IMG/VR virus record: IMGVR_UViG_3300021255_002694
Strand: one strand, 5' to 3'
Source of the DNA: a virus
Taxonomy: Duplodnaviria > Caudoviricetes
Length of the DNA stretch: 64,000 nt
Shown: in pieces, positions 33,484-50,824 of the stretch
How the letters are laid out: the number at the start of each line of letters is the position of its first letter
Numbering within the stretch: the stretch's first letter is position 1
Translations under genes and position numbers: made by a program
Notes under the pieces: model-generated
Databases searched by the model: none
Told to the model about the DNA's origin: nothing
What the model saw: the letters and a program-made list of their open reading frames with translations, nothing else

Positions 33484-36400
33484 GTGGCTGGGTTTTTCAA
33501 CTTACCTAGTGCGGAGTGTACAAAGAAGAAAGACCAGCAACTTCTAAAAAAGGCATCTAGTCCTGTTAAGTCAGTATCTACAACTGCCGTTACATTGAAA
33601 GGTTCTACAAAACTAATTGATAGAATCAATGCAATTACAACAGTTGTTAAATCAAAGTTCGCCGGAAAGGAAGATGAACTTGAACTAATTACAACAGAAG
33701 ATCATCTTATTAAATATATTGATAAGTGTATCGAAAATAATGTAATTAGTATTGATACGGAGACTACAGGACTTGATCCTTTTTTAGATAATATTGTTGG
33801 TATTTGTATTTATACACCAGAATTAAAATCAGCTTATATACCAATAAATCATATAAGTTATATTACAGAACAAAAGTGTGCTAACCAGTTACCTATTGAT
33901 TTTTTGCATGATCAGTTTCAGCGATTAGTTGATGCAAATGTAAAAACAATCTGGTTCAATGCACCTTTCGATATTAGATTCTTACAGAATAAAATAAATG
34001 TAAGATTCACTCCATATTTTGATACATCTGTAGCTGCAATGTGTCTAAACAGTGATGAACCAAAAGGTTCAGGAACTTTGAAAGCATTACATAAAAAGTA
34101 TTGTTGGGGAGATCGCGGAGAAGCATTAACATTCGGAAAGTTGTTTGATAATCTTCCGTTTAATCTAATTCCAATAGATGTTGCTTATTTATATGCTGCA
34201 AGTGATGCTATTTATACATATGAATTGTATGAGTTTCAAGCACAATATCTTGAACCAACAGGTCAGTATTATCAGTCACACCATATGGAAGGTGTATCAA
34301 ATGTTTTCTTTAACATTGAAATGAAGTCAATGCCGACATTTATTGATATGGAACAAATAGGTGTTGAAATTGACTATGATCATGCTAAAGAGATTTATGA
34401 TCGCTACCATGAACTTGCAAATAAGATGAAACAAAACCTTGAAGATGTATGCAAACCGTATCAGCAATTATTTGATGATTATAGACGTAAGCATCCGATG
34501 TGCAAGCTAACTGATCCAATTAACTATGATTCTCCAACACAGCTTGCAATCATTATATATGATATTCTAGGTCTAACATCACCGGATAAACGTAAGCCGA
34601 GAGGCACTGGTGCAAATATACTAAAACAGTTAGATCATCCAATCGTTAAAGCTGTTCTTGATAACAGATCGTTTAATAAGGTTTTATCAGCATTCATTGA
34701 TACACTTCCAGAAAAAGCAAAGTTATATCCAGATAAGCGGATTCACTGTAGCTTTAAACAGTACGGTGCAGCTTGTGTTGTAGGAGATACATCAATCTTA
34801 ACACCAAACGGAAGTATGCCAATATCATCTATTTTTAATGGTGATGAAGAATCTGGTATATCCTATGATACAGATTTAACTATTATAAATAGGAATATTG
34901 AACCTGAAAAAGCATCTCACAGAATTGTATACAGAAATGTTGATACGATTAGGATTACTTTGCGCGGTGGGTATAAGATTGAGGGTACTCCGAATCATCC
35001 AGTAGTTTGCTCGATGCTTACAAAAGATGATATTCTTAGGAATAAGAGTTCAAAACAGATTTCAAGGCTTCCTGAAAATGCTGATTTTAGGATGCTTTCA
35101 GACATAAAAATAGGCGACATTGTAGAAATACCGTATGGTTATAATATATTTCCAACAGAGTATGTGAAAGCATGTGAAAATGATTTTAATATTGATTTCA
35201 TTGATGAGGATTTTGCAGAATTCCTTGGGATGTATCATGCAGATGGTTACATTAAAACATCAAGTGGTGGAATGACAATTTGTTTGTGTAATGATGATCA
35301 GGAAGTTATTGAAAGATATTCAGAACTGTGCTTAAAGTTGTTCGGTATTAAGTGCAAAACATATGTTTATAAGAATAATAGTGTTGTTACATATTGCACA
35401 TGTTATAGGTTGAGATCAATTAAAAGGTATTTATCTTTTGGGGCAAGAAATAAAACAATGCCTGTTGAGATAATGAGATCGCCAAAATCAGTAATATGCT
35501 CTTATATAAGAGGTATGACACTTGACAGCGGTTTTGATAGTTCTCGACAGAGATTGTATATGACATGTGTCGATAAATCAACCTATAATTTCATAGAGCA
35601 GTTCTTATTGAATATTGGAATTTTTACATGCACACGGTTTGGAAAGTATCAAAGTAAAAATAATCATAGTGGTGAACTATGTGATGAAAAGGAAACATAC
35701 CGTATTGGTGTTTCAGGAGAAATGTATAAAAGATTTCTTGATGAAATCGGTTTCATAGAATCATGCAAAGTATATAATACTGATTCTTATAATCATAGTT
35801 GGTATTTAACTTGTGATAATAGATACTATGCATATGTTAAGAAAGTTGAGTATAGAAAAGCTGATGTATATGATCTTACAGTTCCAGAAACACATAGTTT
35901 CATCTCTAACGGAATGATAAGCCATAATACAGGTAGAGTTTCGTGCAAATCGCCAAATCTGCAACAAATTCCAAGCCGTCCTTTTGTGCTAAGTGATGGA
36001 ACTGAAATTGATTCCGGTCATGATGTAAGACAGCTATTCATGGCAACGCCAGGATATATGCTATTATCATGTGACTATTCAGGACAGGAAGTAAGAGTTA
36101 CGGCAGATTTGAGTCAAGATGAAAAACTTATTCAAGCATACAGAGAGGGTAAGGACCCTTATTGTGAAATTGCATCTCTTGCATTTGGTGTTCCTTATGA
36201 AGAATGTACTGAGTATAGAGCCGATGGTACATTTAATCCTGACGGAAAGAAACGTCGCGGAGAAGCAAAAAAAATTGTTTTGGGCGTGTTATATGGTAGA
36301 GGAATACCATCTATTGCAGAACAACTTGGTAAGACAGTAAAAGAAGCACAAAATATTTATGACAGCGTTCTTGCAAAGTTTGAGGGACTTGCAAAGTTCC

Positions 36401-36741
36401 TTGAAGCATCAGAAGATATGGCAAGAAAATATGGATATACCATAACGAAGTGGGGTAGACGCAGACAACTAAAGGACATGCAACTGCCATACTATGAGTT
36501 CGGGTATAAAAATGGTTTTACCCCTGACTTTGATCCACTATCAGATGATTCTTCTGATGTTTCAACAGAAGTTCCTATTGAAATAGTTGAAGTATTAACA
36601 AATAAACTATTGAATTGTTGGGGATATAAGAAACGAGAAGAATTAAAGGAACGAATCAGACAAAAGGGATATACAATTAAGGACAACACGACATACATAA
36701 AACGTGCGCAGAGACAATGTGTCAACAGCAGAGTCCAGGGT
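33484..36741 (+). CDS. polA: DNA polymerase family A, exon 1 (contains an intein)
   Basis: 3'-5' exonuclease DTETTG / YAASDA, TGR.S..SPNLQQIP after intein removal, motif A DYSGQE.R, motif B R..AK...GVLYG; ends at NSRVQG. Confidence 0.93.
34774..35928 (+). mobile_element. Intein (385 aa) with a LAGLIDADG homing-endonuclease domain in PolA
   Basis: Starts CVVGDT, block B GTPNHP, FLGMYHADG, ends VYDLTV..THSF.SNG.ISHN followed by +1 Thr. Removal restores QYGAA-TGRVS. Confidence 0.93.
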
Positions 36742-37774
36742 AGACATATAACTGCCCATTTACATTGAACCTTATTACTCAGGGGTGTGTGGTTATTAAA
36801 CCATGCTAACGGTATCAGTTGAATAAGACCGACTATGCAAACCTTACAAGGAGATCATAGTTATATTAAGGACGAAGTAGCTGACTAAGAGAGCCTAATG
36901 TCCAGAAATGGATAGATGGTAATACCGTGCTAACTCACAGCTTGTATATATATATATATGAAAGGTGGTGATTTAATTGAAAGACATATATGTAATAACT
37001 AATAAAGTGAATGGCAAACAGTATGTAGGTCAGACAAAAGTTGGGTATATTAAGAGATTCAGAGGTCATTGTTATTCATATAAGCGTGGAGTTCGGACAC
37101 TTATAAGTTGCGCTATACATGAGTTTGGCAGAGAAAATTTTTCTGTTTCGCTTATAAAATCTGTTCCGGATAAAGATGCAGACTTTTGGGAAATGTTCTA
37201 TATATGGTGTTATAAAACACACATATCTTGTGGTGGTTACAACATCACATATGGCGGAAAATCAAATCCAATGGATATCAAATATGCATGTGATAGACAT
37301 GATAGGGCTTGTCATTCAGATGAATTTATCGAAAAGCAGAGAAAGGCAAATACAGGAAAAAGAATGTCTGACGAGTCAAAAGAAAAGTGCAGACAAGCAA
37401 CGCTGAAAAATCTTGATATTTGCATAGCTGGATTTAGAGAGTATAACGAAAGTAGAAAGATACGAGTTGGAATGATTGACGATAGCGGAAATATTGTCAT
37501 GGAATTTGACAGCCTTTCAGATGCATGTAGATATCTCGGAGTAACAAAAAAATCATATACTGCATCAATAAAAAGATATGCAGATAAGTATAACAAGAAC
37601 GGTAAGCGTTCAAAATTCCTTGGTTATTCTTGGACATTGCTGTGAGAAGTCTATCGACTATCCTATTTAGGAGTAGGGCAGAGGATGAGTTACTGTCCGA
37701 AGTGTATGTAAACTGCATATATATATATGCAGTAAGATATAGTCAGTCCTTGTAGAAATACAAAGGGTACAACG
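36742..37774 (+). mobile_element. Group I intron in polA
   Basis: Exon 1 ends in U (CAG GGT). P1 is GGGUAG/CUGCCC with a U.G pair, and AACU/AGUU forms P10. The P7 elements GACTAT (~37656) and AAGATATAGTC (37734-37744) are present, and the intron ends in G. Splicing restores VQG-SSADLTK. Confidence 0.9.
36977..37645 (+). CDS. Intron-encoded GIY-YIG homing endonuclease (NUMOD3/NUMOD1-like C-terminus)
   Basis: IYVITNKVNGKQYVGQT..R..H, E..I, GYNI..GG; F.SLSDA.R.L motif. Confidence 0.9.
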   Translation: MKDIYVITNKVNGKQYVGQTKVGYIKRFRGHCYSYKRGVRTLISCAIHEFGRENFSVSLIKSVPDKDADFWEMFYIWCYKTHISCGGYNITYGGKSNPMDIKYACDRHDRACHSDEFIEKQRKANTGKRMSDESKEKCRQATLKNLDICIAGFREYNESRKIRVGMIDDSGNIVMEFDSLSDACRYLGVTKKSYTASIKRYADKYNKNGKRSKFLGYSWTLL

Positions 37775-41277: not shown

Positions 41278-42432
41278 ATGTCAGAGATAGAGTCATTATT
41301 CAAAGAATTTAATAAAAAGTATAAATCAGAACTTTTTACTATTGGAACAGTTGTGCATAACTGTTCAAGAATACCATTTAGTTCACCTAGAGCAAATTAT
41401 ATGCTATACGGCGGCATTCCAAGAGGACGTATTACAGAGTTCGCCGGAGAAGAAGGTTCTGGAAAGACAACAACCGCTCTTGATATTACAGCAAATGCAC
41501 AAAAGCTGTTTAAGGAAGAATGGGAAGATCAGATTCGTGATCTGGAATCACGCGAAAAATTAACTAAGGAACAGACCGCATATCTTGTAAAACTTAGACA
41601 GGACGGACCTAAGAAAGCACTTTGGATTGATTGTGAAAATACGTTTGATGATGAGTGGTCTACAAAACTAGGTGTTGTTGTAGATGAGTTGTGTGTCATG
41701 TCACCTGAATCTCAGAGTGCAGAAGAAATATTTGATATGGTTACACAGATTGTTCAAACAGGTGAAATTGGGCTTGTTGTTATTGATAGTTTAGGTATGA
41801 TGGTTTCTCAGCAAGAAATGGAGAAAGATATTGAGGAATCTACATATGGCGGAATTTCAAGAGCATTGACCAAATTTTCAAAGAAGATTGAACTTGTTTG
41901 TGCAAAAACTAATTGCGCATTGATCGGAATTAACCAAGTTAGAGATAATCTGAATGCCGGATACGGCGGTCCAGCATATACTACTCCTGGTGGTAAGTGT
42001 TGGAAGCATGTATGTTCTGTTCGTCTTATGTTTAGACAGGGTACTCCATTTGATGATAAGTTTAAGGATGTTAAGAAATCGTGTGAGAATCCCTATGGTC
42101 ACAGAGTTCTTATTTCAGTTCAAAAGACAAAGGTTTGTAAGCCTGACAGAAAAACAGGTTTTTATACGCTTACATATGATAATGGAATTGAACCGTTTGT
42201 TGACATTATTGATATTGCTATCAACCGAGATATTATTCATCAAGCCGGAGCATGGTTTACATTCATTGATATTGATAATGATGGTGAAGTTGTATGCCGC
42301 GAAGATGAAGATGGCAATATGTCAGAAGTTAAAGTCCAAGGTCAGGCTAGCCTGATCCCATTTTTACAAGATGAAGCAAATAAGGATATTTGTGACATGG
42401 TTAAGAAATATGTAAATAGATTTGTGTCATGA
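41278..42432 (+). CDS. recA: RecA recombinase
   Basis: GGIPRGRITE..G.EGSGKTT, ID.E, VIDSL, INQ.R, TPGG and AGAWF motifs. Confidence 0.95.
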   Translation: MSEIESLFKEFNKKYKSELFTIGTVVHNCSRIPFSSPRANYMLYGGIPRGRITEFAGEEGSGKTTTALDITANAQKLFKEEWEDQIRDLESREKLTKEQTAYLVKLRQDGPKKALWIDCENTFDDEWSTKLGVVVDELCVMSPESQSAEEIFDMVTQIVQTGEIGLVVIDSLGMMVSQQEMEKDIEESTYGGISRALTKFSKKIELVCAKTNCALIGINQVRDNLNAGYGGPAYTTPGGKCWKHVCSVRLMFRQGTPFDDKFKDVKKSCENPYGHRVLISVQKTKVCKPDRKTGFYTLTYDNGIEPFVDIIDIAINRDIIHQAGAWFTFIDIDNDGEVVCREDEDGNMSEVKVQGQASLIPFLQDEANKDICDMVKKYVNRFVS

Positions 42433-42442
42433 GGTAATTAAA

Positions 42443-44155
42443 ATGGAACTTAGTAAACAGCAGAGAGAAATTGTTGATTCCAAAAGTAAGAAAATAATTG
42501 TTGATGCTGGTTCTGGTTCTGGTAAAACACGAGTTCTAACAGAGAGAGTTAGAAAGTTACTCAGCAGCGGAGTAAACCCATACTCCGTTGTTGTGATAAC
42601 TTTCACAAACATGGCAGCTAATGAGTTGTATGACAGATTGTCAGATGTTAAAAACTCGGATAAATGCTTTATTGGAACAATACATGCATATGCTCACAAG
42701 CTATTAAAGAAATCAGGATATGATTTTGATATATTTTCTGAATACTATCAGACTTTATACATGACAGAGTTGTTAAAGAAATATGGATACTATGCAACCG
42801 TTGATGACTATAATTTATTCTTAAAATATGATAAAATGATTGCATCAGGAAAAATGCAAAAATCTGATCTAAGAAACAAATTCACTGATTACAAAGTATA
42901 TGATGAACTAATGGCACTTCTCGGCAGAGTAAAGCGATCATCATATAAAGAAACGGTTGTTACAATGTGCAAAGAAAACAATGTAATAACTTTTGATGAA
43001 CTAATTGATTTAGCAACAAAGTATTTTAAGGACAGTAACACGAAATTAGAATATCTTTTTGTTGATGAACTTCAAGATATTGGTTATCTTGAATATAACT
43101 TCTTGCTTAGTTTGAATGCTGAAAACTACTTCTTTATCGGTGACGATTATCAATGTCAACCAGCCGGAACAAAGGTGAATATTGTTTGTCATCCAAATAC
43201 AGACATATCCGAAGTAAAGGTTGGAGATTGGATTCAGTCAGCAGAAAGAACATCTGATGGCAAGTTTTGTCATACAAATCTAATGAAGAGAGTTATCAAT
43301 GTTCAAAAGAGCATTTCACCAGAGATATATACTGTCAAAACTATTGACGGTAGAACATCATCATATACACCAAATCATAGATGTGTTGTTGGTGTATTTG
43401 ATAAAGAAACATGCAATATCCATATTGAAGAAGTGCTTGCAAAGAATCTGAATAAGTATATGTACGCTATTGTTATAAAGAATGATAGGTACATGTTTGA
43501 TCGGATTGTAAGTATAGATCATGTTGAAAAAGATACTGATGTTTACTGCCTAGAGGTTGATGATGGATTATATTTTGCAGACGGTATGCTTACACACAAC
43601 AGCATCTTTTCATTTAAAGGTGGAGATGTAAATATTTTCCTATCTTTAATGCATAATGAAGAGTGGCAACCATATTTTCTTACTGAGAACTACAGAACAG
43701 CAAGATCAATTTTAATGTATGCAAATTCCATTGTTCAGAATGCAGATGATATAATTAAAAAAGATGTTGAGTTCAAGAATGAAAATGTTGGAAGCCTTGA
43801 ATTTAACACAAAGTCACAGCTTGAAAAATTCTTATCTGACCTGAATCCAAATGATGATTGGTTTATTCTAACACGATCAAATAAGGAAATGAGCGCGATT
43901 GATTTAATTTTAAAGAAGTTGAATAAAGAACACTACTGCTTTAAGCAATCTACAACAGCACCTAAAAAGATCAATGAGATATTATCGAAGCCGTGTATAA
44001 AGGTTATGACAATACATGCATCTAAAGGTCTTGAATGTGATAATGTTGCACTGTATGGAAAACTGCCTGTAAAGGGAAAAGGTCAATCGGAAGAACTAAA
44101 AGTTTATTATGTCGGTATAACAAGATCAAAAGATAGATGTGTTATTTTTGTGTGA
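42443..44155 (+). CDS. UvrD/PcrA-family helicase containing a mini-intein
   Basis: AGSGSGKT, ITFTN.AA, VDELQD, IGDDYQ|SIFSF.G, LTENYR, MTIHASKGLE and YVGITR motifs. Confidence 0.92.
   Translation: MELSKQQREIVDSKSKKIIVDAGSGSGKTRVLTERVRKLLSSGVNPYSVVVITFTNMAANELYDRLSDVKNSDKCFIGTIHAYAHKLLKKSGYDFDIFSEYYQTLYMTELLKKYGYYATVDDYNLFLKYDKMIASGKMQKSDLRNKFTDYKVYDELMALLGRVKRSSYKETVVTMCKENNVITFDELIDLATKYFKDSNTKLEYLFVDELQDIGYLEYNFLLSLNAENYFFIGDDYQCQPAGTKVNIVCHPNTDISEVKVGDWIQSAERTSDGKFCHTNLMKRVINVQKSISPEIYTVKTIDGRTSSYTPNHRCVVGVFDKETCNIHIEEVLAKNLNKYMYAIVIKNDRYMFDRIVSIDHVEKDTDVYCLEVDDGLYFADGMLTHNSIFSFKGGDVNIFLSLMHNEEWQPYFLTENYRTARSILMYANSIVQNADDIIKKDVEFKNENVGSLEFNTKSQLEKFLSDLNPNDDWFILTRSNKEMSAIDLILKKLNKEHYCFKQSTTAPKKINEILSKPCIKVMTIHASKGLECDNVALYGKLPVKGKGQSEELKVYYVGITRSKDRCVIFV
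43154..43600 (+). mobile_element. Mini-intein (149 aa, no endonuclease) in UvrD
   Basis: Starts CQPAGT, block B TPNH, ends VYCLEV....YFADGMLTHN followed by +1 Ser; it splits helicase motif III GD..QSI. Confidence 0.92.
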
Positions 44156-46822: not shown

Positions 46823-46838
46823 AAATTAAAAAAAAAAT

Positions 46839-46909
46839 AGGAAGTTAGTTAAGTGGTAGAACGGCAGTCTCCAAAACTGCATACAGAGGTTCGATTCCTC
46901 TACTTCCTG
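46839..46909 (+). tRNA. tRNA-Trp(CCA)
   Basis: AGGAAGT/ACTTCCT acceptor, GCAGT-CTCCAAA-ACTGC anticodon arm, TTCGATT T loop. Confidence 0.9.
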
Positions 46910-46916
46910 TTCATAC

Positions 46917-46989
46917 GTGCCTGTAGCTCAGTTGGTAGAGCAACGCCCTTTTAAGGCGAAGGTCATGGATTCGAGTTCCATCAGGCACA
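46917..46989 (+). tRNA. tRNA-Lys(TTT)
   Basis: GTGCCTG/CAGGCAC acceptor; CGCC-CTTTTAA-GGCG anticodon arm. Confidence 0.9.
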
Positions 46990-47048
46990 CTCATTGACAT
47001 TTATATAGGTAAGACACTTTAATGAACTGACAAAAGCATTTTAATTAT

Positions 47049-47136
47049 TTGACATTTTCTAACCTCACTTTCTATAAAGAACCAAATCCTGATCAGGTTC
47101 TAGTCGAAATAGTTTTCGATTTGTTTGAGATCAGGA
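47049..47136 (+). ncRNA. Antisense-segment + scaffold RNA, copy A
   Basis: TTGACATTTTCTAACCTCACTTTC, then AAAGAACC / stem TCCTGATC / AGGTTCT / hairpin / TGTTTGA / GATCAGGA. Confidence 0.65.
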
Positions 47137-47173
47137 ATCATAGATTTTATGAAAAAAAAATTCAAAAAACCAC

Positions 47174-47202
47174 TTGACAAAATTAAAAAATTGTGATATA
47201 CT
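47174..47202 (+). promoter_or_regulatory. sigmaA-type promoter driving the ncRNA/tRNA cluster
   Basis: TTGACA-17-TATACT with TG extension and an A-tract UP element. Confidence 0.88.
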
Positions 47203-47208
47203 ATATAT

Positions 47209-47295
47209 GTAATTGACATAGAATTACTCCTATTGGCAAAAAACCATTACAGCTAGGTTTCAATAAGTGCAAGTTATTGTTTTTGAAGCTGTTAA
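47209..47295 (+). ncRNA. Antisense-segment + scaffold RNA, copy B
   Basis: TTGACATAGAATTACTCCT, then CAAAAAACC / ACAGCT / AGGTTT / CAATAA..TTATTG / TTTTTGA / AGCTGT. Confidence 0.65.
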
Positions 47296-47404
47296 GCATT
47301 TAGTGAATTACACTACCAAAAACGGAAAGTATTGTTAGTGATTCAAAAAAAAACCAAAGCAACTAGGTTTCAGATAATTTCACATTCTGTTTTTGAAGTT
47401 GCTT
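47296..47404 (+). ncRNA. Scaffold RNA, copy C (variable 5' segment has no clear anti-SD)
   Basis: CAAAAAAAAACC / AAGCAACT / AGGTTT / CAGA..TCTG / TTTTTGA / AGTTGCTT. Confidence 0.6.
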
Positions 47405-47604
47405 ATATTCGAGTGCTTGAAACAGGAGTGGGGTAATCCATTTAAGGCATATGGCATGTACAGTAACCATTAGAGTTCTAGGAAACTCTTTTGGAGCTGA
47501 TTGCATGTATCGTCACAGGAGATGACTCAGATGTGTTTGATTTCCTAGAATCACACATACCACGATTCAAGTAGTGGCACTCCTGTTTCAAACACTTGAG
47601 TATA
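47404..47604 (+). ncRNA. tRNA-like kissing-loop RNA 1
   Basis: ~27-bp closing stem, a T-arm-like CCAC-GATTCAAGTA-GTGG, and complementary hairpin loops CTAGGA (47478) and TCCTAG (47543). Confidence 0.65.
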
Positions 47605-47605
47605 T

Positions 47606-47677
47606 TCCCCTATAGTTCAGTTGGTAGAATGTGGGACTGTTAATCCTAAGACACTGGTTCAAGTCCAGTTGGGGGAG
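47606..47677 (+). tRNA. tRNA-Asn(GTT)
   Basis: Cloverleaf; anticodon loop CTGTTAA. Confidence 0.9.
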
Positions 47678-47685
47678 TTCATTAT

Positions 47686-47759
47686 GGTTCGGTAGTTCAG
47701 TTGGTTAGAATGCTTGCCTGTCACGCAAGAGGTCGTGGGTTCGATCCCCATCCGAATCG
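47686..47759 (+). tRNA. tRNA-Asp(GTC)
   Basis: Cloverleaf; CTTGC-CTGTCAC-GCAAG. Confidence 0.92.
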
Positions 47760-47765
47760 CTCAAA

Positions 47766-47923
47766 TCACATGGCAGCAAAAATCTTGGTTGAAACAAATG
47801 AATGAGTGGCTATAGGTGATAATATGTAGATGAAAATGCTCACACCTTACCATATGCACCATAGAACCGATTGAGAATAGGGTGTAAAAGCCTTGACTAA
47901 AAGTTTAATGCTCATTGTGTGAT
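47766..47923 (+). ncRNA. Unknown structured RNA
   Basis: ATCACAT/GTGTGAT closing stem, CTATAGGTG/CACCATAG stem, ACACCT/GGGTGT pseudoknot. Confidence 0.45.
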
Positions 47924-47963
47924 CGCCTAAATAAAGCTGGGAATAGGGCGAAATTAAAAAAAT

Positions 47964-48110
47964 CACCTAGTTTCGGTGCAACACTTATCACGGTGCATCG
48001 TTGGTAAGTGTCAAGTGGTATCCGAATATACAAACCGGATGATATTACAGAGGAATGCACTTCTTTGTAGTATTTGAAAGTCGTTGAGGGTTCGATTCCC
48101 TCCTAGGTGT
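47964..48110 (+). ncRNA. tRNA-like kissing-loop RNA 2
   Basis: Perfect 7-bp acceptor CACCTAG/CTAGGTG, canonical T arm GAGGG-TTCGATT-CCCTC, and complementary loops GTGCAT (47993) and ATGCAC (48055). Confidence 0.7.
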
Positions 48111-48207
48111 TTAAAATAAAAGGGAGTTAAGTCGTGGCGGCTTGAGCCTGTTTTAAGGTTCGGGGTGTACCGTACCACGCTAGCCCAAAGTCCATAAACA
48201 CCCATAT

Positions 48208-48294
48208 GCTGGTGTGGTGAAATTGGAAGACACAGCGTGCTTAAACCGCGCTTCCGGATGCGGAGTATGGGTTCAAGTCCCATCACCAGTACCA
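48208..48294 (+). tRNA. tRNA-Leu(TAA)
   Basis: Long variable arm, loop CTTAAAC, encoded CCA. Confidence 0.88.
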
Positions 48295-48320
48295 ATATAT
48301 TAAAGCAAAATTTATTTAAT

Positions 48321-48410
48321 GGCAGCGTGGCAGAGTCCGGCTTAATGCACCAGTCTTGAAAACTGGCGTTCCGAAAGGGACCGTTGGTCCGAATCCAACC
48401 GCTGTCGCCA
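48321..48410 (+). tRNA. tRNA-Ser(TGA)
   Basis: CCAGT-CTTGAAA-ACTGG, long variable arm, encoded CCA; the T loop is TCCGAAT. Confidence 0.9.
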
Positions 48411-48412
48411 AT

Positions 48413-48485
48413 GCTGATATAACTCAACTGGCAGAGTAGTGGTTTTGTAAACCACAAGTTGTGGGTTCAAGTCCCTCTATCAGCT
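48413..48485 (+). tRNA. tRNA-Thr(TGT)
   Basis: GTGGT-TTTGTAA-ACCAC. Confidence 0.9.
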
Positions 48486-48506
48486 TCAAAAATTTACAGT
48501 AAAGGC

Positions 48507-48535
48507 TTGACAAAAACAGAATTTTATGCTATAAT
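48507..48535 (+). promoter_or_regulatory. sigmaA-type promoter
   Basis: TTGACA-17-TATAAT with TG extension (perfect consensus). Confidence 0.9.
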
Positions 48536-48541
48536 ATTTGT

Positions 48542-48630
48542 ATGACATACTTTATCAACTCTTTTGAATCAAAAAACATGCAGTGATGTTTCTATGGATA
48601 TGATTTATGTCTATAGTTTTAGTAACTACA
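48542..48630 (+). ncRNA. Antisense-segment + scaffold RNA, copy D (divergent)
   Basis: ATGACATACTTTATCAACTCTTT, then CAAAAAACAT / GCAGT / ATGTTT / CTATGGA..TCTATAG / TTTTAG / ACTAC. Confidence 0.55.
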
Positions 48631-48637
48631 AAATTAA

Positions 48638-48711
48638 CGGAGTGTGGCTCAGTTTGGTAGATCGCCTGGTTTGGGACCAGGATGCCGCAGGTTCAAGTCC
48701 TGTCACTCCGA
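48638..48711 (+). tRNA. tRNA-Pro(TGG)
   Basis: CCTGG-TTTGGGA-CCAGG. Confidence 0.92.
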
Positions 48712-48718
48712 TTTAACT

Positions 48719-48794
48719 GGAAGGGTAGCTCAGACGGTTAGCAAGCAGCGGTCTTATAAACCGCAGGTCGTGGGTTCGAGTCCCACCTCTTCCA
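48719..48794 (+). tRNA. tRNA-Ile(TAT)
   Basis: GCGGT-CTTATAA-ACCGC anticodon arm, G1-C72, A73. Confidence 0.85.
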
Positions 48795-48888
48795 TTCATG
48801 CTCTACGGAGCGTAATTGATCTTCTGCTATACTGATCAAATCTAATACATCATCACGAAGGCAGAGTAGTGGTGATGTAATTATGAAT
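48794..48888 (+). ncRNA. Small kissing-loop RNA 3
   Basis: Three hairpins inside an ATTCAT/ATGAAT stem; loops TTCTGCT and GGCAGAG are complementary. Confidence 0.55.
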
Positions 48889-48928
48889 AACATTATACTT
48901 GCTTTAATTGTAAGTAAATCATGTTTTT

Positions 48929-49015
<87 letters not shown>

Positions 49016-49019
49016 GTTT

Positions 49020-49168
49020 AGTCATAGGACCGTTGGAGGCTACGATTTACCGATGCAGTCCAGTCAAGGTAATCCCCTAAATCTACACAGGGAACAGAGG
49101 GTATGCAAACGGTGTGTTACTCTAGCAGTAGAAAACATAGCACCGTGACTGATAGGAGAGACTATCAC
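49020..49168 (+). ncRNA. Unknown pseudoknotted RNA
   Basis: AGTCA/TGACT closing stem; ACCGTT/AACGGT, TTACC/GGTAA and TCTAC/GTAGA crossing pairings. Confidence 0.45.
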
Positions 49169-49176
49169 TTATATAT

Positions 49177-49314
49177 GCAGGAATCGTCTAAATGTGGTTG
49201 CGACCAAAAAGAAAGAGTTTGCATTATTCCTAGGTAAGTGATGTGAACTTTAGTAATCCGTAGGACACGAACTGATCATTCGGATGTAGGAGTAGCGACC
49301 TGCTTCCTGCACCA
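49177..49314 (+). tRNA. Remodelled tRNA-Ile(GAT)-like RNA with a ~65-nt D-loop insertion
   Basis: GCAGGAA/TTCCTGC-ACCA acceptor, CGAA-CTGATCA-TTCG anticodon arm, non-canonical T loop AGTAGCGA, and two hairpins inserted in the D loop. Confidence 0.65.
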
Positions 49315-49318
49315 ATAT

Positions 49319-49390
49319 GGCTCTTTCGTCAAGTGGTTAAGACCTCTGTCCGCAAAGCAGATGTCGCTGGTTCAAATCCGGCAAGAGCCT
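49319..49390 (+). tRNA. tRNA-Cys(GCA), with C at position 33
   Basis: TCTGT-CCGCAAA-GCAGA; U73. Confidence 0.85.
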
Positions 49391-49395
49391 TATAT

Positions 49396-49660
49396 GCCCA
49401 AGCACCAGTCCTGAAAAGCACGGTTTGTGTAGCACACAAATGTCAGATGCATAAAGTCAGGTTAAAGTTGAAATTCGCTTGTGCAAAGAATACGGAACTT
49501 CACCGTAGGAGAACAGGTAGACGTACCCAAGAGTAAGTTGCAAGGGCTTAGAACTCTTAGCACGTAGCGTCAACGGAGTCCGGAATCAGGTTAGGATGGT
49601 TTCTTTGAAATATATGCACCGATAAATGTGGTGTCCTGATGAATGACGTAAAAAACCATT
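49396..49660 (+). ncRNA. One or two unknown highly paired RNAs
   Basis: GCCC/GGGC, CCTGA/TCAGG, TACGG/CCGTA and AAGAGT/ACTCTT; then CGTCA/TGACG, ATCAGG/CCTGAT and ATGGTTT/AAACCAT. Confidence 0.5.
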
Positions 49661-49662
49661 TT

Positions 49663-49737
49663 GCAGATGTAGTTTAATGGCTAGAACCTGTGACTTCCAC
49701 TCACAAGACGGGGGTTCGATTCCCCTCATCTGCTCCA
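49663..49737 (+). tRNA. tRNA-Gly(TCC)
   Basis: TGTGA-CTTCCAC-TCACA; TCCA end. Confidence 0.92.
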
Positions 49738-49743
49738 TTATTT

Positions 49744-49815
49744 GCCCCATTAGTTCATCGGACAGAATAAATCCCTTCTAAGGATCAGAGCGCGGTTCAA
49801 TTCCGTGATGGGGTG
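49744..49815 (+). tRNA. tRNA-Arg(TCT)
   Basis: ATCC-CTTCTAA-GGAT anticodon arm. Confidence 0.88.
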
Positions 49816-49978
49816 TCAAAACGCATCGAAATATCTGAATACCATAGCAACATGGAAACAGATAGACAAAATTTTATTTTTGTTCGTTCCCCGATTAGAT
49901 GTGTTTCAATTAAATAGGGAAAACTGCACATATAAGTTGCATTATACATGAAAGTGCAGATATATAAAGGAGATAAAC

Positions 49979-50317
49979 ATGAAATCAGTGCTTATTGTGA
50001 TCATAGCAATGTATCTTGTTTTTGCTATAACTGATGTAATTTGTTGTCCGATTCTATATCAGAAAGTGTTTTATAGAGTATGCAAGGATTCATTCAATGA
50101 TGATCAAGATGCATCGGTGGTTTCAAGAAAACTTGCTAGAGAATTTACATTTCGTTTTGCTTTTGTTCCACTTGCAAATATAGCAATTTTCATATTTTCA
50201 TTTTTAGACAATGATATTTTATGTGAACTTGAAATGTTTACATATAATATGTTTATGGAAGATGAAGATGCTAAATATGCACTTGCAGAGGAATTGAAAG
50301 AAATTAAGAAAGATTAA
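49979..50317 (+). CDS. Hypothetical membrane protein inside the tRNA cluster
   Basis: AAGGAG RBS; two hydrophobic segments. Confidence 0.65.
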   Translation: MKSVLIVIIAMYLVFAITDVICCPILYQKVFYRVCKDSFNDDQDASVVSRKLAREFTFRFAFVPLANIAIFIFSFLDNDILCELEMFTYNMFMEDEDAKYALAEELKEIKKD

Positions 50318-50321
50318 ATAC

Positions 50322-50403
50322 GGGAGTGTCGCCTAGTGGCAATGGCATCTGACTGTAAATCAGACGGTTTTATCCTTCGTTGGTTCAAGTCCAACCACTC
50401 CCA
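50322..50403 (+). tRNA. tRNA-Tyr(GTA)
   Basis: TCTGA-CTGTAAA-TCAGA; long variable arm. Confidence 0.92.
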
Positions 50404-50413
50404 TTATCTATAA

Positions 50414-50497
50414 TGCCGTGTCGCCAAGTGGAAAGGCAGCGGACTTTGACTCCGCCAGCATTTATGCTTTACGTTGGTTCAAATCCAGCCACGGCAA
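50414..50497 (+). tRNA. tRNA-Gln(TTG) with a long variable arm
   Basis: U1-A72, GCGGA-CTTTGAC-TCCGC, extra arm AGCAT-TT-ATGCT. Confidence 0.85.
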
Positions 50498-50504
50498 TTC
50501 AATA

Positions 50505-50579
50505 GGTCCTATCGTCTAGTCTGGTCTAGGACGAGAGATTTTCATTCTCTAAACATCGGTTCAAATCCGGTTAGGATCA
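50505..50579 (+). tRNA. tRNA-Glu(TTC)
   Basis: AGAGA-TTTTCAT-TCTCT. Confidence 0.9.
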
Positions 50580-50584
50580 TCTAA

Positions 50585-50824
50585 GACCACATGCTAATAT
50601 TCTTTGCGTGTTATACTTATGGCATGTTTCCTTTATTTAGAAATCCTGTGTCTTTTATTCATTTTTGCACAGGTCGGGTTGTCCATATGTCCGTACCTCC
50701 TTTGCGGTTTTTTACTCATACCTAAAGTAAACACGCTGCCGGAACAACACCTATGGTGAATGGTACGAAATGACCAGTCTATCTCTCTGCCATACGGGTA
50801 AAGACAGAGAGATAGATTCCGGAA
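50585..50824 (+). ncRNA. Multi-hairpin sRNA with an exposed anti-SD loop, followed by a cloverleaf
   Basis: CCGTA-CCTCCTT-TGCGG hairpin and GCGTGTT/AACACGC long-range pairing; CCGGAA/TTCCGG-closed cloverleaf at 50739-50822. Confidence 0.5.

Follow-up and report, generated by a model that had tools for sequence, protein, structure and literature searches.

The locus and its tRNA array

The window (the whole stretch of 64,000 nt that was analysed, from IMG/VR record IMGVR_UViG_3300021255_002694) is AT-rich, with 33% GC, and every long ORF lies on the + strand. The ORFs include genes for a family-A DNA polymerase, a UvrD helicase, SNF2, RecA and a clamp loader, and on this gene content the window was taken to derive from a large uncultured phage. 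A Pfam scan of 29 window ORFs returned solely replication and recombination genes, and no gene for tRNA processing, RNA repair or Ro60 was seen near the array. An intein with a LAGLIDADG domain lies in the DNA polymerase A gene (33484-36768, +), and a Hint/intein domain is found in the UvrD-like helicase gene (42422-44155, +).

Sixteen tRNAs were located at 46838-50579 using ARAGORN and Rfam. The element described here sits among them, on the same strand, in a gap of 303 nt that separates tRNA-Leu(CAA) from tRNA-Cys(GCA), and its parts are given in Table 1. The probable promoter of the transcription unit has 12 of 12 consensus matches plus a TG extension, and the genes downstream of it are all on the + strand. 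No ORF longer than 44 aa overlaps the element. CCA is encoded by four of the tRNAs (Leu-UAA, Ser, Leu-CAA and Gly) and by the element. After seven of the 16 tRNAs (Trp, Lys, Asn, Asp, Thr, Ile and Glu), N73-TCA stands in place of CCA, and such ends would fit a host in which CCA-less precursors are processed by RNase Z.

Between tRNA-Leu(CAA) and the element lies a spacer of 161 nt (window 49016-49176, +) that is 96-98% identical in nine related contigs, and the modules adjoining it are 82-95% identical in the same comparison. It has no match in Rfam, and from these identities it appears to behave as an RNA module of its own, movable and under very strong constraint. The structured spacer of ~265 nt between tRNA-Cys and tRNA-Gly (window 49396-49660, +) is 89-95% conserved in nearly all related arrays and is kept even in arrays without the element and tRNA-Cys.

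Table 1. Positions of the element, its parts and its flanking signals in the window
Feature	Position	Strand	Remarks
Probable promoter of the element's tRNA transcription unit	48507..48535	+	TTGACA-17-TGnTATAAT
Leader TATATAT	49170..49176	+	U(-1), A(-2) before the predicted RNase P cut
Element, 138 nt	49177..49314	+	tRNA-shaped RNA gene
Acceptor stem, 5' strand GCAGGAA	49177..49183	+	pairs with TTCCTGC, 49304-49310
U8, N9, P2 5' strand GUCU (49186-49189), A14, A15	49184..49191	+	
P3 5' strand AUG.GGUUGC	49192..49201	+	prolongs the D-position stem; partner 49253-49261
A-rich bulge GACCAAAAAGAA, 12 nt	49202..49213	+	nearly invariant in both types
P4 hairpin, 15-bp stem	49214..49251	+	apical loop CCUAGGUA, 49229-49236
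P3 3' strand (49253-49261), A, P2 3' strand (49263-49266)	49253..49266	+	
A26-like base, 4-bp CGAA/UUCG stem, loop CUGAUCA (49272-49278), GAU	49267..49285	+	
T-position arm, 5-bp stem GUAGG/CCUGC, 8-nt loop	49286..49303	+	
Acceptor stem, 3' strand TTCCTGC, discriminator A, encoded CCA	49304..49314	+	GCACCA invariant
Spacer ATAT (4 nt), then tRNA-Cys(GCA)	49315..49390	+	directly 3' of the element
Terminator-like hairpin with T run, 3' of the unit's final tRNA	50691..50715	+	

Homologues, fold and covariation

Related contigs were reached through two neighbouring ORFs, exact-protein look-ups and one JGI pattern match. A covariance model (R1) was built from the first 11 copies of the element and finds 12 distinct full copies, with scores of 132-163 bits, and two truncated copies. 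The copies are of a short type of 138 nt (window, L024, L023, L019, L020/L021 and L005/L006) or a long type of ~168 nt (L002, L014/L015, L013, L004 and L027). The element is missing from five related arrays (L009-L012 and L026), all of which are also without tRNA-Cys; tRNA-Cys is found in every array carrying the element and in none lacking it. In most arrays the element is preceded by the 161-nt RNA, and in L019 and L014 directly by tRNA-Leu. The element is a movable module.

The related arrays differ in other respects. Modules, the element included, are shuffled among them, and they are interrupted at differing points by genes for TnpB-like (Cas12f1-like_TNB), GIY-YIG and HNH endonucleases (L005:1091-2221, L006:709-1839, L027:319-1626, L002:5714-6427 and L013:3093-3806). 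According to ARAGORN, the tRNA-Cys beside the element has the anticodon ACA, not GCA, in L005 (3880-3951), L006, L007 and L008. An interrupted tRNA-Ile(UAU), homologous to window 48718-48795, is present at L009:3920-4069 (+) and also in L010; the insert itself (L009:3955-4025) scores 32.2 bits on the Rfam tRNA model, for which the gathering score is 29, and looks like a low-GC tRNA-like unit nested within a tRNA.

Searches of larger collections added one copy. Comparison of the spacer holding the element (49016-49318) with INPHARED phages using blastn gave no match, and neither did the neighbouring 1013-aa protein using tblastn. Pattern scans of IMG/VR gave a single chance 18-mer match, in L001, which is without tRNAs, and a related-locus search using the upstream ORF gave none. 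The scan of JGI metagenomes yielded one true homologue, L024. Pattern matches in the GTDB representative genomes numbered nine and were all due to chance (R1 negative), giving no prophage copy and no host clue. The element family is distinct and narrow, and it was found in one narrow phage group only. No description of the element's RNA was found in the literature.

The + strand of the element folds to -39.9 kcal/mol (z = -2.5) and the - strand to -23.8 kcal/mol (z = +0.8). In the consensus, the acceptor stem is followed by U8 and N9, the 4-bp stem P2, an A-A/A internal loop, P3 (3 + 6 bp), the 12-nt A-rich bulge and P4 with its CCUAGGUA loop. Its 3' half consists of the A26-like base, the anticodon-position hairpin (4 bp, loop C[U/C]GAUCA), the trinucleotide GAU, the T-position hairpin (5 bp, 8-nt loop) and ACCA. 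P3, the A-rich bulge and P4 together form a rod in place of the D loop, which is replaced by ~73-75 nt in the short type and by ~103-105 nt in the long type.

Much of the earlier note's description of this RNA, as a tRNA-Ile(GAT)-like molecule with a large insertion in the D loop, is borne out. The acceptor stem with ACCA, the hairpin at the anticodon position and the arm at the T position are present where they had been placed, the T loop is non-canonical as described (8 nt, with no T-loop motif), and the 15-bp hairpin with the self-complementary loop CCTAGG at 49229-49234 was found again; the P4 cap in the DNA is CCTAGGTA. The insertion is also real, at ~75 nt, but the short hairpin proposed within it was not kept in the 168-nt relatives, where P3 is found instead. 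This small hairpin, GGTTGCGACC / GGUUGCGACC (GGUUGC with GACC), was dropped because its pairing fails in the long type. GGTTGC (49196-49201) pairs with GTAATC (49253-49258; GYAAUC in the consensus), which lengthens the D-position stem, and the minimum-energy folds of most homologues show P3 directly.

In the alignment of 11 sequences, 98.4% of paired cells hold a base pair, against 29-56% in controls with partners slid by 1-3 columns. Ten of the 29 pairs are changed on both sides, and the covariation score was reached by none of 500 shuffles (11 sequences for both). Double-sided changes were found in four of the seven acceptor pairs (11 homologues), in one pair of P2 (4 bp, 100% paired), in two pairs of P3 (97% paired) and in two of the four pairs of the anticodon-position stem. 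The homologues fall into two sequence types, or deep lineages, and most compensatory changes trace to this one split, so that the independent covariation events are few. Within the short type, P4 varies in 11 of its 15 pairs and is still 97.8% paired, mainly through G-U wobble. The upkeep of P4 pairing, mostly through G-U, indicates that the + strand RNA is the selected object; the many G-U pairs and the fold energies likewise point to the + strand. Each of the 20 variable columns of the short type falls within a helix, and its 50 unpaired columns show no variation (Fisher P = 7e-5).

In the homologue alignment, conservation is higher in loops than in stems. All 12 homologues have the CCUAGGUAA loop unchanged although the P4 stem differs completely from one type to the other; in the long type, the CCUAGGUAA motif is carried in an enlarged loop beside an extra hairpin. 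The palindrome UGAUCA is found in the anticodon-position loop of 10 of the 12 copies and is reduced to GAUC in the other two (L013 and L004), while GAUCA is invariant across homologues and the 3-nt variable region is GAU. T8, A14 and A15 are invariant as well. The T-position loop reads AGTAGCGA in the window and RGUARCGW across homologues, without the TTCRA motif.

A palindromic loop has little weight by itself. With three loops of such size, one palindrome is expected by chance in ~12% of cases, and CCTAGG occurs three times in the window against 3.1 expected, with no enrichment. Two palindromic loops (6 nt) out of three correspond to P ~0.005 in what is a post-hoc test. It is the conservation and covariation, not one palindromic loop, that exceed chance. 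Judged by these comparisons, the element is almost certainly a real structured RNA gene.

Departures from tRNA and rival explanations

No call was made on the element by ARAGORN or by Rfam (E <= 10), and ARAGORN with the intron option or a relaxed threshold also gave no tRNA at this position. Conversely, true tRNAs aligned along the whole of the R1 model reach 15-26 bits (T4 tRNA-Thr 26.5, the neighbouring tRNA-Leu 15-19). The core of the element is tRNA-like. It shares with canonical tRNA (RF00005) the 7-bp acceptor stem, U8, A14, R15 (A15 in the element), the 4-bp D-position stem, the 7-nt anticodon-position loop, the 5-bp T-position stem, the discriminator and CCA. In its homologues, the one base that separates P2 from the anticodon-position stem is invariant, and so is the GAU that follows the latter. 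Three arms depart from the canonical form: the 4-bp D-position stem encloses 73 nt in the short type and 103 nt in the long type, with no G18G19, the anticodon-position stem has 4 bp with an invariant C37 and with C in place of U33 in L013 and L004, and the T-position loop has 8 nt where a 7-nt TTCRANY loop is expected. tRNAs reading ANN codons carry t6A37. The identity pairs of E. coli IleRS are C4-G69, U12-A23 and C29-G41, and the element is without all three. The GAT triplet named by the earlier note is present, but C37, the variable U33 and the lack of other IleRS identity pairs tell against the assignment to tRNA-Ile; with GAU and A73 as the sole Ile-like features and most tRNA hallmarks failing, the element was not filed as tRNA-Ile. 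The broader proposal, of a tRNA-related RNA that has moved beyond normal tRNA constraints, is supported by the homologues and by the failed tRNA hallmarks. The evidence thus supports a tRNA-derived or tRNA-shaped RNA that has departed from those constraints, and on sequence grounds the element is very likely not a decoder.

Three rival explanations would leave the element a tRNA gene, past or present. A working tRNA-Ile(GAU) with an enlarged D arm, charged by IleRS and reading AUU and AUC for the AT-rich phage, would make sense of the GAU in a 7-nt loop, of A38, A73 and CCA, and of the conserved U8, A14 and A15; a canonical gene for it is absent from all arrays, which have G34 tRNAs for the NNY codons of Asn, Asp, Cys and Tyr. 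It is an improbable reading in view of the invariant C37, the loss of U33 in two loci, the 4-bp anticodon stem, the 3-nt variable region, the missing T-loop motif and G18G19, the absence of the other IleRS identity pairs and the negative ARAGORN and Rfam results, and of a rod of 75-105 nt that juts from the elbow, the site of ribosome and L1-stalk contacts. If the insert were intron-like and its removal gave a normal tRNA, there would be a precedent in the ~75-nt anticodon-loop insert of the L009 tRNA-Ile(UAU), by which interrupted tRNA genes are known to occur in this phage group. Yet ARAGORN called no tRNA in any of 504 insert-deletion versions of the element, nothing points to removal of the insert, and even after it three features, namely T loop, variable region and position 37, would remain non-canonical. 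The insert is also far below the size of a group I intron and matches no ribozyme family, and its loop and bulge are the most conserved parts, unlike those of an intron, so that this explanation is very improbable. Least probable of all is a decaying tRNA pseudogene, or a set of chance hairpins, without function. The silence of the gene finders and the absence of the element from L009-L012 and L026 would suit it, whereas pairs that survive 10 double changes, invariant unpaired segments and variation confined to helices do not. An unconserved pseudogene, which the earlier note had named as one outcome that would overturn its reading, is contradicted by the 12 homologues, the covariation and the helix-confined variation. 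Both the intron and the pseudogene are disfavoured because removal of the insert yields no normal tRNA and because the most conserved residues lie in the insert.

Two other rivals assign the RNA a role in trans. As a decoy or adaptor, it would resemble tRNA-Ile while staying uncharged permanently, and would titrate or trigger a host factor that recognises the anticodon and ACCA end of tRNA-Ile; candidates are IleRS, the leader of an Ile T-box and a defence nuclease directed at tRNAs. A T-box reads two elements of a tRNA, the anticodon loop and the discriminator/CCA end, and the invariant GAU loop, A73 and CCA of the element are both of these. Loops that are more conserved than stems would agree with such a role, and the promoter type and the seven N73-UCA tRNA ends may fit a Firmicute-like host with RNase Z. 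The elbow, which is required for docking of T-box stem I, is however non-canonical, and the invariance of the CCUAGGUAA loop and the A-rich bulge would be left unexplained; a decoy is held to be unlikely, if slightly less so than the other rivals. A trans-acting antisense RNA like C4 of phages P1 and P7, which RNase P would excise and whose loops would pair with phage or host mRNA, would account for the tRNA-like CCA end and the exposed invariant loops. Hartmann et al. 1995 (as cited in PMC4919922) reportedly found the C4 precursor to be an RNase P substrate, and its cleavage would serve as a precedent. This reading is about as improbable as the working tRNA-Ile, as a search of the window and the related loci (part of the phage genome) gave no conserved complementary site, matches do not exceed chance, and the Rfam C4 family was negative. 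Sequences able to pair with the two loops are no more frequent than expected by chance in the window and ~200 kb of related DNA, again part of the phage genome. Candidate target sites in the PolA gene, at 33502 and 33889/33908, were rejected as no better than chance.

Proposed maturation, loop pairing and comparison with known RNAs

Taken as a whole, the reading of the element as a conserved non-decoding tRNA-shaped RNA, processed as a tRNA and with a topology like that of T4 RNAC, is considered reasonably probable. The element would be co-transcribed with the tRNAs from the promoter at 48507. Bacterial RNase P prefers U(-1), A(-2), a stack of acceptor and T stems (12 bp) and a 3' RCCA (PMC4919922). 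In the element, the two stems make up 7 + 5 contiguous bp and occur together with ACCA, U(-1) and A(-2), and a cut between 49176 and 49177 would be aided by these features, with the acceptor and T stems stacked. Since the T-position loop is not a T-loop, an elbow read by the specificity domain of RNase P is putative. tRNA-Cys starts 4 nt past the CCA of the element, so that its own RNase P cut and exonucleolytic trimming would finish the 3' end; cleavage at the 5' end of tRNA-Cys and trimming of AUAU would leave a 138-nt RNA ending in ACCA. From the sequence features listed, release by RNase P is likely.

A tRNA-like four-way junction is kept in this non-decoding RNA, with U8, A14, A15, the A26-like base and the G44/U48-like GAU conserved. 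The rod probably continues the stack of anticodon and D stems, coaxial stacking being a guess. If P3 and P4 are stacked on the D and anticodon stems in this way, the CCUAGGUA and CUGAUCA loops would, speculatively, be placed at opposite ends of the rod. The tRNA part would provide maturation, stability and perhaps access to tRNA-binding proteins, and the invariant loops and bulge would be the working contacts. As a best guess, the contacts would be made by loops pairing with loops, those of another copy of the RNA, since both loops are self-complementary, or those of a partner outside the DNA examined.

The earlier note compared the CCTAGG loop to retroviral dimer-initiation loops and proposed that it pairs with itself or with another RNA of the array, RNA 1 (47404-47604, +). 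A self-complementary hexamer, CCUAGG, is exposed in the loop of all 12 copies. Nearest-neighbour energies of the self-duplexes are about -9.2 kcal/mol for CCUAGG and -5.2 kcal/mol for UGAUCA. Pairing of the element with itself through these loops is conceivable on sequence, though doubtful; the palindrome in the anticodon-position loop lends it a measure of indirect support. It is an improbable further step that the RNA is a self-assembling scaffold, in which rod ends bearing CCUAGG and UGAUCA might form head-to-head and tail-to-tail dimers and give rings or filaments displaying CCA arms; if true, this would be a phage-made RNA scaffold on a tRNA chassis. RNA 1 is ornate and bears mutually complementary loops, CUAGGA and UCCUAG. 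As proposed, TCCTAG of the element is complementary to the CTAGGA loop at ~47478, but RNA 1 was found in the window only and in no other array examined, and it was discarded as a conserved partner. Since the loop is invariant in relatives that all lack RNA 1, pairing with it is not a conserved role. In L002, L019 and L023, the homologous leader is joined directly to tRNA-Asn, and the CCUAGGUAA loop is unchanged.

Selection falls on the two exposed loops and the A-rich bulge, not on the stems. Genes of this kind, conserved and tRNA-shaped, escape tRNA finders and Rfam in phage arrays, and small phage RNAs may quite generally have their starting point in tRNA arrays.

Several known RNAs offer partial parallels. 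HIV-1 DIS and phi29 pRNA expose loops able to pair intermolecularly. By analogy the loops of the element might do so too; they have 8 nt and 7 nt and are without the flanking purines of the HIV-1 DIS, and the loops of phi29 pRNA are complementary to each other and not palindromic, unlike those of the element. The C4 antisense RNA of P1 and P7 is matured by RNase P and has a tRNA-like CCA end and exposed loops, and the element has a similar end and similar loops. C4 RNA is ~77 nt long, and its known targets adjoin the C4 gene. The element differs in that no target was found and in having no match to the Rfam C4 family. YrlA and other bacterial Y RNAs and the tRNA-like domain of tmRNA are non-decoding and mimic part of a tRNA (PMC4201824). 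The element has no Rfam match to YrlA or tmRNA, no tmRNA gene was called by ARAGORN and a G3-U70 pair is lacking; for the comparison with YrlA, a Ro60 gene is absent among the ORFs scanned.

The closest parallel is with phage T4. That phage tRNA clusters hold stable RNAs other than tRNAs, T4 RNAC and RNAD, has been known since the 1970s, and the role of RNAC is still given as unknown in reviews and in an omics study of 2022 (PMC3014915, PMC9697503). T4 RNAC (species 1 RNA, rnaC) lies in the T4 tRNA cluster on the strand of the tRNAs, as the element does in its own array, and has 139 nt where the element has 138 nt. Its predicted topology matches that of the element, with an acceptor-like stem, a D-position arm of ~60 nt, an anticodon-position hairpin and a T arm. 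In RNAC the T loop is the canonical TTCGAAT and no CCA is encoded, whereas the element has a non-canonical T loop and an encoded ACCA and, unlike RNAC, a 7-nt anticodon-like loop and two palindromic loops. The score of R1 on T4 rnaC is 6.6 bits (E = 1.2), with no detectable homology. By this comparison the element is an apparent analogue of T4 RNAC in architecture and genomic setting and not a member of the RNAC family, and it gives a second, unrelated example beside T4 RNAC and RNAD, one that comes with comparative data.
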